10,829 nt of DNA. Source: Promethearchaeota archaeon. GTDB lineage: Archaea > Asgardarchaeota > Lokiarchaeia > Sigyniarchaeales > SOKP01. The notes under the pieces are model-generated. The model saw nothing but the letters and a program-made list of their open reading frames with translations. It did no database searches and was not told the DNA's origin. The stretch is taken from positions 1 to 10,829 of the forward strand of contig SDNY01000122.1 in the NCBI GenBank assembly GCA_004524535.1, written 5' to 3'. Below are positions 1,759 to 5,142 of the stretch, piece by piece. Position 1 is the first letter of the stretch. Each line of letters opens with the position of its first letter. The position numbers and the translations under genes were made by a program.

Positions 1759-1934
1759 TAGATTCAAAAAGAGCCAAAAAAAAAAAAATCTGTAATTCCT
1801 TTTGTATATTTTGTCATTCAATAATTCGAAATCTCTTGTGGAAGAAACTCTTTTTTATTTTGAACTAGTACGAAAATTTTAAGTTTAAGAAAATATTTCT
1901 TTTCATATAGTAATTATTTTATTAATTGAAAAGT

Positions 1935-1940
1935 AAGGTG
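1935..1940 (+). promoter_or_regulatory. Shine-Dalgarno-like motif for rps12
   Basis: AAGGTG ends 7 nt before the ATC at 1948; it matches the archaeal GGAGGTGA-type SD. Confidence 0.65.
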
Positions 1941-1947
1941 TTTTATA

Positions 1948-2382
1948 ATCGGCAAACCTAAAGGATTATATGCTGCACGACAGTTAAAGAAAAATCGTAA
2001 AAAATTCAGATGGTCCAAAACCAAATATAAAAGAAAAAAACTCAAATTAAAACAAAAAGCGGATCCACTCGAAGGAGCACCTCAAGCTTTGGGTATTGTT
2101 TTGCAGAAAGTCGGAAGAGAAAGCAAGCAACCGAACTCAGCAATACGCAAATGCGTAAGAGTTCAACTCAAGAAAAACGGAAAAAGTATTACCGCTTTTT
2201 TACCTGGTGATGGGGCATTAAACTTTATAGAGGAACATGATCAAGTAATTGTTGAAGGGATTGGAGGTGCTAAAGGCAGAGCAGTTGGTGATTTACCTGG
2301 AGTGAGATGGAGTGTTGTTAAAGTTAATGGAGTATCTTTAGAAGCGCTACTAACCGGGCGGAAAGAAAAGCCATTGAGGTAA
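1948..2382 (+). CDS. rps12: 30S ribosomal protein S12 (uS12/S23), 144 aa, with a probable non-canonical ATC start
   Basis: The ORF track starts at TTG 2089, but the same frame upstream reads (ATC) [46 protein letters not shown], the conserved archaeal/eukaryotic uS12 N-terminus. It continues into [25 protein letters not shown] and GDLPGVRW. An in-frame TGA at 1927 bounds the frame. Confidence 0.95.
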
Positions 2383-2387
2383 AAACT

Positions 2388-3005
2388 ATGAGTAAAGACA
2401 AAAGTGAAATAAAATTATTTAATATCTGGTCTTTTAATGATATAGAGGTAAATGATTATACTATAGTTAATTATATTAATTTAAGCCCTATTATTATCCC
2501 CCATTCATGCGGAAAACATGAACATAAAAGGTTCTGGAAGACTTCAAAGGTTTCGATAGTTGAACGGTTTGCCAATAGATTATTATCCCCAGGATTTATA
2601 GCTGGAAAAATTAAGGGTCATAAAAGCTCTCATAATTCAGGAAAAAAAAATAAAATAATTAAAGGTATAAAAACCGCATTCATATTGATCGAACGTATCA
2701 CAGAATTAAATCCAATTCAAGTATTAGTTGATGCTATAGTGAACACCGCTCCAAGAGAAGAAACAACTCGGATTGCGATGGGAGGAATTTCCTACGCATC
2801 AGCAGTAGACATTTCACCTCAACGAAGAGTTGATTTAGCAGTTAAATATTTAACCCAAGCGATTGCTTCACGAAGTAGCGGGAGTTTAAGAAATTTTGAA
2901 GAATGTATTGCACAAGAACTTATCAATGCGTCAAAAAACTCACAAGAATCACTAGCAGTAAAAAGAAAAGATGAGATAGAAAGAATTGCCATCTCTGCAC
3001 GGTAA
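2388..3005 (+). CDS. rps7: 30S ribosomal protein S7 (uS7/S5e)
   Basis: Motifs IKLFNIWS, SIVERFANRL, NPIQVLVDAIVNTAPREETTRI, AVDISPQRRVDLA, IAQELINA, KRKDEIERIAISAR; starts 5 nt after the rps12 stop. Confidence 0.97.
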   Translation: MSKDKSEIKLFNIWSFNDIEVNDYTIVNYINLSPIIIPHSCGKHEHKRFWKTSKVSIVERFANRLLSPGFIAGKIKGHKSSHNSGKKNKIIKGIKTAFILIERITELNPIQVLVDAIVNTAPREETTRIAMGGISYASAVDISPQRRVDLAVKYLTQAIASRSSGSLRNFEECIAQELINASKNSQESLAVKRKDEIERIAISAR

Positions 3006-3141: not shown

Positions 3142-5142
3142 ATGAGTCCCGACAAAAATAGAAATGATATAGAGAAACTGCTAAAAACCTTAGGCCAAAA
3201 GATTAGAATAGACATCTTGAAGAAGTTGAAAAATAGTGAATTAGTAGTATCCTTTTCCAAGCTTCAAAAAGAAATTTTAGATACGAATCAAAATTCTCTT
3301 AATTTTTCCTACCATATAAAAGCATTAGAAAAAGTTGGTTTAATATCGAGCTCTGAGGATGGTTATTTCATTTCATCACTTGGCAAGAAAATTTTAAACA
3401 TAGTTTTATCAATGGAACAATTTCTAGACGATCAAAACAAGATTACAATGATTAGGACTTCAAAATACTCTAAAGAAGTTTTTGATTTTAAAAAAATTGA
3501 AGATTATTTGATTAAAGAGGGTGAATTAGAAAGGTACTTGGCAAAAAAAATCGCCCGTGAGGTTAAAGAACGCCTTTCTAAGATAAACATAGAATATTTA
3601 ACGTCTCCATTAATGCGAGAATTTATAAATGCTATACTTTTAGAAGAAGGTTTAGAGGATGTGAGACATAAATTAACACGATTAGGCACGCCTCCTTATG
3701 AAGTCTTTAAATTATTTAAAAATAATGAAATATTTCCAGAAAATTTTATCCAGATATTAGGTTCAGATGTTTCTGAGCAATTTTTATTACTAAATCTGTT
3801 ACCTAATCACTTGGCTGATCTTTATTTATCAGGAGAAATAGCTTTATGCCATCTAAACTATTGGAGTTTAAGACCACTAAGTATCTATGTGAATACAGAG
3901 ACATTATTGGATATAATATTCAAAAGATATTCAAATATATCTAAAAATGTTGATAATTCAAAAGATTTACTTAGTCTTTTATTAAGTTTAGTAGATTTAA
4001 TTTATCAAATAAAGCCATATTTTTCTGAAGATCTCGTATTAGGGGATTTCAACAATAAATTCCTTTCGCTTTTTAATTTTCTTAGTAAGGATAAAAACTC
4101 AGATTTTCATAAAATCTTATTTTCTCAAATTTCAAGATATAACAAAGAAATTAACGATAGTCGAAGCCATTTATCCTTAGAATTTTGTTATGATGATAAG
4201 AACCATTTAAATGGAAAAAAAAGATTTCAATTTCAAAACGATAAATTATTTTTAGAAAAACTTAACAATGGAATAAATTATAATGAAAATCACATCAATC
4301 CTTTAATCCTATTTGATTATTCAAAATTTGATTTTCAAGAAATAGAAAGCTTTGTTTTAAATGACATCAATTTATCAAATTTAGGAAAAAATTTTATCTT
4401 TTATGATAATAAATCACATTTGTTAAATTCAAACATTATTAAAATTATGAATTCTGACGAAAATAAATTTTTAAGGGCTAGAATTATTTTAGACAAAATT
4501 TTGATTAATTTAAACTCAATATCATCAGAAGCAAATCAGAATGATGATGTTTTTTGTGATTTATTACAAGATAAACTGAATTCAGTTTTTGAATTTTTTA
4601 GCTATAAAGAATCTTTAATTAATAGGAAATTAAATTCTTTAAAAAATTGGGAGCCTTTAGTATCAGATTTTTTTGGAGAAGATTTCAGAAATTGGAGTAA
4701 ATATTCGTTAAAATCAATTAGTTTTATTGGATTGAATGAAGCTATTATTAACCATTGTGGTTTAGAGCTCGATAGAGTAGTCGCAAGTCAATCATTTGCC
4801 CTTAAAATTTTATCCCTTTTAAAAGATCTAATCAATGAAAAAAATGAAAACGAAAATGAATCTTTTGTTTTGAGTCAGCCTCATCGTGATAGATATATTG
4901 CGCTATCTAAAAATAATAAGATTATGAAATTAAACAAAAAGAACCATTTTTATTCCCCAAGAATAATAAGAAAAAACTCCAAATTACCTCTACAAGAAAA
5001 AATTTCCATTTTCAAAAAATTTGAGACAGTAATTGAAGGCGGAACGAAATTCAATAATTCACTTAGTTCTAATAATATGTCAAAAGAAGAAAGTTTAAAA
5101 ATTTTAATGGAATCTAAATTAAAAGCATTTTCAATTCACTAA
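3142..5142 (+). CDS. ArsR-like winged-HTH + ATP-cone + degenerate class III ribonucleotide reductase (NrdD-like) domain protein; probably catalytically inactive
   Basis: Residues ~10-95 form an ArsR-type wHTH (LLKTLGQKIRIDILKKL...SFSKLQKEI...NFSYHIKALEKVGLI...GYFISSLGK). Residues ~103-190 match the archaeal NrdD-type ATP-cone (IRTS...FDFKKIEDYLIKE...IAREVKERL...LTSPLMREFINAILLEEGL...TRLG). NrdD barrel remnants follow: ADLYLSGEIALCHLNYWSLRP, ILINLNSISSEA, SISFIGLNEAI, FALKILSLLKD, FVLSQP, LQEKISIFKKFETVIEGG. There is no finger-loop Cys motif, no C-terminal CxxC pairs and no RxxGY glycyl-radical loop. Confidence 0.8.
   Translation: MSPDKNRNDIEKLLKTLGQKIRIDILKKLKNSELVVSFSKLQKEILDTNQNSLNFSYHIKALEKVGLISSSEDGYFISSLGKKILNIVLSMEQFLDDQNKITMIRTSKYSKEVFDFKKIEDYLIKEGELERYLAKKIAREVKERLSKINIEYLTSPLMREFINAILLEEGLEDVRHKLTRLGTPPYEVFKLFKNNEIFPENFIQILGSDVSEQFLLLNLLPNHLADLYLSGEIALCHLNYWSLRPLSIYVNTETLLDIIFKRYSNISKNVDNSKDLLSLLLSLVDLIYQIKPYFSEDLVLGDFNNKFLSLFNFLSKDKNSDFHKILFSQISRYNKEINDSRSHLSLEFCYDDKNHLNGKKRFQFQNDKLFLEKLNNGINYNENHINPLILFDYSKFDFQEIESFVLNDINLSNLGKNFIFYDNKSHLLNSNIIKIMNSDENKFLRARIILDKILINLNSISSEANQNDDVFCDLLQDKLNSVFEFFSYKESLINRKLNSLKNWEPLVSDFFGEDFRNWSKYSLKSISFIGLNEAIINHCGLELDRVVASQSFALKILSLLKDLINEKNENENESFVLSQPHRDRYIALSKNNKIMKLNKKNHFYSPRIIRKNSKLPLQEKISIFKKFETVIEGGTKFNNSLSSNNMSKEESLKILMESKLKAFSIH

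Follow-up and report, generated by a model that had tools for sequence, protein, structure and literature searches.

The rps12 gene studied here, which encodes ribosomal protein uS12 in a genome of the class Lokiarchaeia, is very probably translated from an AUC codon led by a Shine-Dalgarno (SD) sequence and, judging from the genomes compared, represents one case of a lineage-wide use of AUU, AUA and AUC (together AUH) as start codons. A genuine AUC start was one of the alternatives offered in the initial annotation of this DNA. It is strongly supported by the conservation of the codon, by purifying selection on the codons that follow it and by the SD geometry, which together with the gene anatomy are directly observed, and by contigs assembled in other studies.

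The window is the whole stretch of DNA that was analysed, 10,829 nucleotides in length, and corresponds to an entire contig (C72) of a MAG (G000; 3.66 Mb in 198 contigs, 30.4% G+C). Pfam matches of the ORFs in the window give the order Rpb1 domain 5 (the end of RNA polymerase A''), L7Ae/L30e, NusA-like KH, S12 and S7, which is the archaeal rpoA''-L30e-NusA-S12-S7 arrangement. A spacer of 210 nt separates the end of the NusA-like gene (1738) from rps12. In archaeal clusters of the str type the place after rps7 is usually taken by elongation factor genes. Here a 666-aa ORF is found 3' of rps7 (3142-5142, forward strand), with Pfam matches to DUF7347 and to anaerobic ribonucleotide reductase (NRDD). 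The features discussed in the text are presented in Table 1.

Table 1. Features of the rps12 locus and of three further genes with proposed AUH starts. Positions refer to the window unless another contig is named.
Feature	Location	Strand	Remarks
Promoter-like A/T box AAAATTTTAAGTTTAAGAAAATAT, candidate BRE/TATA element	1873..1896	+	~64 nt 5' of start codon
TGA closing the rps12 frame 5'	1927..1929	+	in-frame stop in the sequence
SD box AGGTG	1936..1940	+	complementary to 16S 3' end ...GGATCACCTCC of relatives
ATC, proposed near-cognate rps12 start codon	1948..1950	+	
rps12 (uS12) coding sequence, 144 codons and TAA	1948..2382	+	
TTG of default ORF callers, read as a false start	2089..2091	+	costs 47 conserved residues
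GAGGT SD box of rps7	2376..2380	+	overlaps rps12 3' end; aligned distance 13 to ATG 2388 (hand count)
rps7 (uS7), ordinary ATG start	2388..3005	+	ORF and Pfam
aIF1 (SUI1), sole copy in the genome, 108-codon frame	C174:10556-10882 (locus L215/L216)	+	ATC 10565 proposed start
TFB gene, proposed ATT start directly after AGGTG-TAA-AAC	C183:5134 (locus L246)	+	zinc ribbon before first canonical start
uL22 gene, frame TAA AAA ATT CCA AAC TGG GGA	C188, reverse-complement coordinate 10603	-	no canonical start before Pfam domain

After the TGA at 1927 the rps12 frame reads AAA GTA AGG TGT TTT ATA ATC GGC AAA CCT AAA GGA, and neither the sequence nor the ORF listing contains an in-frame ATG, GTG or TTG between this stop and the TTG at 2089. 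The earlier description of the locus, with ATC at the codon where Met is expected and TTG 2089 as the first canonical start, is therefore confirmed. The same is true of the stated cost of that TTG, since the ORF lister returns 2089..2382 (97 aa) with its default start codons and 1948..2382 (144 aa) when ATC is allowed, the difference being 47 conserved residues. The product is clearly uS12. Residues 35-142 match PF00164 (Ribosomal_S12_S23) at E 2.9e-46, scoring 156.2 bits where the curated cut-off is 22.3, and TTG 2089 corresponds to residue 48, inside this domain. The alignment with solved eukaryotic chains (for example 9eho_YY and 11hg_RR) pairs residues 1-142 with residues 1-141 of those chains, which places the ATC codon at residue 1 of the eukaryotic uS12 chains, while residues 3-144 align to the archaeal chain 9fhl_N (E 1.2e-60). 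The homologous codon of relatives is ATG, GTG or TTG.

An SD-like element had also been noted upstream of the ATC, and this holds: the AGGTG box is separated from the codon by a spacer of 7 nt (1941-1947). The 3' end of the 16S rRNA (...GGATCACCTCC) was taken from relatives and gives GGAGGTGATCC as the SD consensus; the 16S gene of the MAG itself runs off its contig at model position 1343, and four congeners yielded no 16S. Among the SD 5-mers preceding 1719 confident starts of the genome, aligned distances of 12-17 predominate with a mode of 14, and 14 is the aligned distance between AGGTG and ATC 1948. A coding-potential score of pre-start regions was also computed, with a separation too weak for use alone.

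Further upstream, a box nearly identical to AAAATTTTAAGTTTAAGAAAATAT is present at an equal distance in all eight genomes of the genus, and of the 105 rps12 loci of the family 51 have a TTTAAAG-like box, 45-85 nt upstream. From the candidate BRE/TATA box we infer a transcription start that would give a leadered rps12 mRNA, with a leader of roughly 30-35 nt. Five RNA-library runs contained small shares of this genome; the one that was compared gave a single contig of 153 nt (2063-2213), from which neither a transcription start nor an expression level can be read.

To place the codon in its evolutionary context, rps12 5' ends were gathered from 126 genomes of the same class and from 80 genomes of the other classes of the phylum. 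When the 5' regions were aligned, as had been proposed at the outset, ATC or ATA was found at the position of codon 1948 throughout the genus (ATC in five of eight genomes, ATA in three). In all eight congeners GGTG lies 7 nt upstream of the AUH codon with its GTG always out of frame, and in one of them (L009) a TGA is located three codons 5' of the ATC. Comparison of the codons between ATC and TTG 2089 with those of six congeners gives 14-25 synonymous and 1-2 non-synonymous differences; over the same 47 codons there are 24 synonymous and 1 non-synonymous differences to L007, 14 and 1 to L004, and 2 and 0 to the near-identical L003. By this comparison, purifying selection acts on the 47 codons that precede TTG 2089. 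Positions 1948-1950 are also spanned by contigs of three other studies (runs X2, X3 and X4), which show no difference there, although they differ elsewhere; the runs were compared as assembled contigs rather than raw reads, in which minority variants are invisible. A 144-aa NCBI protein (P0010, MGKPKG...) is identical to congener locus L004 read from its ATC, and therefore the public annotation pipeline already accepts such a start in a relative.

The use of AUH codons extends over the whole genome. We collected 3159 stop-to-stop ORFs without mutual overlap, each 90 codons or longer, and considered as boundary codons those in frame, no more than 5 codons from the upstream stop and at least 8 codons before the first ATG, GTG or TTG. 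An SD 5-mer at a distance of 13-15 precedes 43 of 769 AUH boundary codons, compared with 25 of 3757 (0.67%) for all other, non-start codons in comparable positions (Fisher 1e-17), so that SD-backed AUH starts number at least 43 among the 3159 ORFs. By type, these are 26 of 367 ATT and 16 of 304 ATA, and by subtraction 1 of 98 ATC, that one being rps12. The rarity of ATC as an SD-backed start means that the genome-wide statistics back ATT and ATA directly, and ATC by analogy and through the case of aIF1 described below.

Protein domains point in the same direction. From 79 SD-associated AUH codons, 26 were printed and 18 of these were hand-picked for recognisable N-termini, making a non-random set in which the Pfam domain starts 5' of the first canonical start in 13 of the 18 candidates, with 1 sub-threshold and 4 uninformative. 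The 13 genes encode FtsZ/tubulin, the zinc ribbon of TFB, five Ras/Arf/Rag-like GTPases, HisA (from profile position 1), a 2-oxoacid oxidoreductase, an Fe-S protein, uL22, an AsnC regulator and an AMP-binding enzyme; the five GTPases would lose their P-loop under a canonical start. Of the 30 TFB loci read in relatives, 14 retain the string AGGTG-TAA-NNN-ATT-TCN-AGY-TGG, and in 9 the stretch from the stop to the zinc ribbon is free of canonical codons. The uL22 gene likely starts at an ATT three bases past an in-frame TAA. We conclude that in this organism and its family dozens of genes start at AUU or AUA, or less often at AUC, in most cases with a strong SD, which seems to compensate for the weak codon.

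The gene for aIF1 presents the same picture. Its frame contains no ATG and reads TGA AAA GAG ACA ATC AAA GAC GAA GAC ATT TGT CCA ATA TGT, with the in-frame TGA closing it three codons before ATC 10565 and a conserved AGGTTGTGA box upstream of the start. Among the 30 loci of relatives that were read, the homologous codon is an AUH codon in all 21 genomes of the family (ATT in 17, ATC in 3 and ATA in 1), and 18 of these 21 cases are made unambiguous by a stop codon in frame immediately 5'. The sister family has TTG in five genomes, ATA in two, and GTG and ATG in one each. In Sulfolobus, aIF1 is reported to be a start-codon proofreader that rejects non-canonical starts (PMC6237735). The factor expected to disfavour AUH starts would thus, from its reading frame, itself be made from an AUH start, and this start may be an archaeal analogue of the infC AUU autoregulation.

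For rps12, AUH codons are also present beyond the genus, both within the family (four further genera) and elsewhere in the class (four of its six remaining families). Among the 126 genomes of the class, 63 have ATG at the Met-homologous codon, 41 have AUH, 12 GTG, 9 TTG and 1 ACG. The 80 genomes outside the class have ATG in 46, TTG in 31, GTG in 3 and AUH in none, these counts being those of a hand-read table because the automatic start picker mis-called a few loci (an 'ACG' in f16, a 'TTG' in f24). TTG is fixed in whole families outside the class, for example in 21 of 23 genomes of f12. Only 10 of the AUH cases are unambiguous, namely the eight congeners, L027 and L028 (GGTG TAA AAT ATT). 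Of the 35 AUH loci in the family, 27 have the GTG of their GGTG box in frame, 9 nt upstream, where it might serve as an alternative start. We read GGTG in these 27 loci as a probable SD rather than a start, because sister genomes have a stop between the box and their GTG or TTG start codon.

SD strength differs with the type of start codon. Among the 105 rps12 loci of the family, the SD match before AUH codons has a mean of 4.74 nt and reaches at least 4 nt in 35 of 35, whereas before ATG it has a mean of 3.17 nt and is 3 nt or shorter in 35 of 53, a comparison to be read with the caveats that the start picker broke ties by the presence of an SD and that kin are not independent. In a separate case, locus L122 (G045, family f7), the Met-homologous codon is ACG, located 7 nt past GAGGTG (GAGGTG T TTT GTA ACG ACA GGT), which makes an ACG start possible there.

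With the AUC start, initiation on rps12 may be envisaged as follows. The SD AGGUG of the leadered mRNA (1936-1940) would pair with the 3' end of the 16S rRNA and set the AUC in the P site, where the initiator Met-tRNA (anticodon CAU) would read it with a mismatch at the third position. The product would be a normal uS12 of 144 residues with Met-Gly-Lys-Pro-Lys-Gly at its N-terminus. The yield would be expected to lie below that of an AUG and to be sensitive to aIF1, with the strong SD partly compensating. Use of the initiator tRNA, Met as first residue, lower yield and sensitivity to aIF1 are inferred from near-cognate initiation in bacteria and eukaryotes.

The initial annotation had gone further and suggested that the weak start could tie the output of uS12, and perhaps of uS7, to the stringency of initiation, in the manner of the AUU of infC or the start context of eIF1. 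Several features of the gene are in line with such a dedicated device. A start other than ATG is unusually frequent in rps12 (63 of 126 genomes in the class and 34 of 80 outside it); the AUH codon has been kept in the genus over a turnover of about 50% of synonymous codons while ATG is one base change away; and three genomes (G000, G002 and G005) carry ATC on both aIF1 and rps12. The adjoining rps7, taken as a control gene, has ATG in at least 81 of the 95 loci that could be parsed among the 105 of the family (f1); outside this family rps7 was unusable, since N-termini diverge or the gene is not adjacent, 59 of 201 loci lack a match and several non-ATG calls are artefacts.

However, the weak start is not specific to rps12. 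AUH starts occur genome-wide on functionally unrelated genes, as seen from the 43 SD-backed boundary starts and the 13 of 18 hand-picked genes confirmed by Pfam, and this weakens the idea of an rps12-specific device. Half of the class (63 of 126) has ATG, and the counts given above overstate the case since kin are not independent. Within one genus (g11) the rps12 start varies among ATA, GTG, TTG and ATG, which looks like a near-neutral exchange. This lability together with the genome-wide use suggests that AUH starts function acceptably in the lineage and that exchanges with GUG and UUG come at no great cost. The folding of the rps12 leader is no stronger than that of shuffled controls (z 0.11). 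To our knowledge uS12, a protein of the decoding centre, has no role in start-codon selection. The proposed coupling to uS7 is unsupported, as rps7 has a GAGGT box and an ATG of its own. Taken together, we regard a dedicated stringency device at rps12 as unlikely.

A broader form of the stringency idea retains some plausibility in view of the proposed ATC start of aIF1 itself: by analogy, all genes with AUH starts, rps12 among them, could respond to the level of aIF1. Its fullest version would be a stringency regulon centred on aIF1 in this family, in which aIF1 limits itself through its AUU or AUC and core genes with AUH starts (uS12, uL22, TFB, FtsZ and many small GTPases) co-vary. We consider this regulon a speculative proposal that is rather doubtful at present. 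If true, the self-limitation of aIF1 would be an archaeal counterpart of the autoregulation of infC and eIF1.

Translation of rps12 from AUC 1948 also has to be weighed against a start one codon earlier, at AUA 1945, an option that had been left open before. Starts at ATA are frequent in the genome, and the codon is in frame directly 5' of the ATC. However, the aligned distance from AGGTG to ATA 1945 is 11, at which only 6 confident starts of the genome are found against 102 at 14, and the position is occupied by CGA, AGT, AAA, AAC or AAG in six of the eight congeners and by ATA in two. The ATC is preferred because of its modal SD distance and because ATA is present in only two of the eight congeners, and we judge initiation at AUA 1945 to be very unlikely.

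Less probable still is a truncated uS12 of 97 aa starting at TTG 2089, or initiation out of frame, at GTG 1938, with a subsequent +1 frameshift. The TTG product is given by default callers and is present in exact form in the public protein collection, where the exact 144-aa form is absent. Against it stand the strong purifying selection on the 47 upstream codons and the fact that these codons form part of the Pfam domain and of the solved uS12 structures. GTG 1938 is a canonical start codon, but it lies inside the SD box (1938-1940), out of frame with rps12 and without an SD of its own. No conserved slippery site follows it in the congeners, which read GTG TTT TAT, GTG TTT TCG, GTG TAT TAA or GTG AAT TAA.

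An error of sequencing or assembly, which had been the other main suggestion for the missing start, can be dismissed: although ATC is one base away from ATG and the MAG is fragmented, ATC or ATA in all eight congeners, the agreement of the contigs from three other studies at 1948-1950 and dozens of further genes with the same pattern refute it.

The start proposed for rps12, SD-led AUC 1948, resembles several known systems. In E. coli, infC (which encodes IF3) and pcnB have AUU start codons. Like the rps12 start, these are led by an SD, differ from AUG at the third position and involve a mismatch with the initiator tRNA, and their yield depends on a start-proofreading factor, as proposed here for rps12. 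They differ in being bacterial, with IF3 in place of aIF1. In the case of infC the product is itself the proofreader, hence the autoregulation, whereas uS12 is no known proofreader; the counterpart of infC in this genome would be aIF1, likewise with a proposed AUC start. The autoregulation of eIF1 through a poor start context, reportedly described by Ivanov et al. in 2010, is similar in that the stringency of start-site selection feeds back on expression. In contrast to rps12, it operates in eukaryotic scanning without an SD-led near-cognate codon and concerns the gene of the factor rather than uS12. Animal mitochondria use AUA and AUU as start codons. There, too, AUH codons are regular starts in an A+T-rich genome, but the system is organellar, with its own code and tRNA-Met modification.

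Comparable starts have been described more recently. In Staphylococcus aureus, according to the parts of the report available to us, non-canonical AUA and AUU starts lie behind extended Shine-Dalgarno motifs (PMC13009471). This combination of a weak AUH codon with a stronger SD is similar to the rps12 loci of the family, where AUH codons have matches of 4-5 nt and ATG mostly 3 nt or less. The difference, as far as the accessible text goes, is that S. aureus is a bacterium whose start sites were mapped experimentally, while ours are derived from sequence alone. For the Asgard tubulin gene atubA from a Kariarchaeaceae MAG, a 'rare ATT start codon' was thought probable in the portion of the article consulted (PMC13394414). 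That organism is also an Asgard archaeon, and the accessible text makes the remark for a single gene in the context of cloning, with no ribosomal protein, ATC or genome-wide count. The excerpt of a review available to us states that SD sequences are apparently not prevalent in the Prometheoarchaeum genome (PMC7531240). A literature search on start codons in Asgard archaea and Lokiarchaea and on aIF1 autoregulation, which covered few subscription journals and some sources only in part, yielded no work dealing with rps12 or with AUH starts on a genome-wide scale in archaea, the atubA remark being the only relevant item.

In archaea, AUG, GUG and UUG are commonly regarded as the start codons. This textbook view would be widened by regular SD-led AUU, AUA and AUC starts in a family of Asgard archaea. 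There is also a practical consequence. Default callers clip uS12 by 47 residues, and likewise dozens of genes of the lineage including TFB, FtsZ, aIF1 and small GTPases, all frequently invoked in discussions on the origin of eukaryotes. Asgard proteomes called with ATG, GTG and TTG only will therefore be systematically short at their N-termini, since AUH starts are missed. Moreover, the weakest type of start codon, on both aIF1 and a protein of the decoding centre, allows one to ask directly whether archaea regulate expression via the stringency of initiation, for which IF3 provides a bacterial and eIF1 a eukaryotic precedent.

Some observations were made on the RNA genes of the lineage. For the initiator tRNA of this genome, ARAGORN reported 9 or 12 tRNAs depending on the options, with a doubtful sole 'tRNA-Met' of 97 nt, and a regular-expression search for a CAU anticodon stem-loop gave nothing tRNA-like. 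In general, tRNA genes are scarce for a MAG whose completeness is rated at 99% (Rfam RF00005 gives 15 and ARAGORN 9-12), and several contain introns. The missing tRNA genes are probably either interrupted in a way beyond the reach of these tools or unassembled. The 16S match of the same genome (C76:27-1381, reverse strand) is split exactly at model positions 828/830. Elsewhere in the family the match of G061 ends at 828 and that of G105 is confined to 1344-1467, which suggests that 16S genes of the family carry insertions or introns.

Inserts are also present in rps12 itself in genus g11. Three loci, L106 (G101), L109 (G067) and L121 (G095), carry an insert of 30 nt with an in-frame TAA. The inserts occupy two different sites, after AFLPG and after GDLPGV. 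Each of them forms a perfect hairpin, with the flanking exon bases pairing across and minimum free energies of -28.1, -19.7 and -32.0 kcal/mol over 90 nt. From these sequence features, the inserts are candidates for mini-introns of the splicing-endonuclease (bulge-helix-bulge) type in a protein-coding gene.
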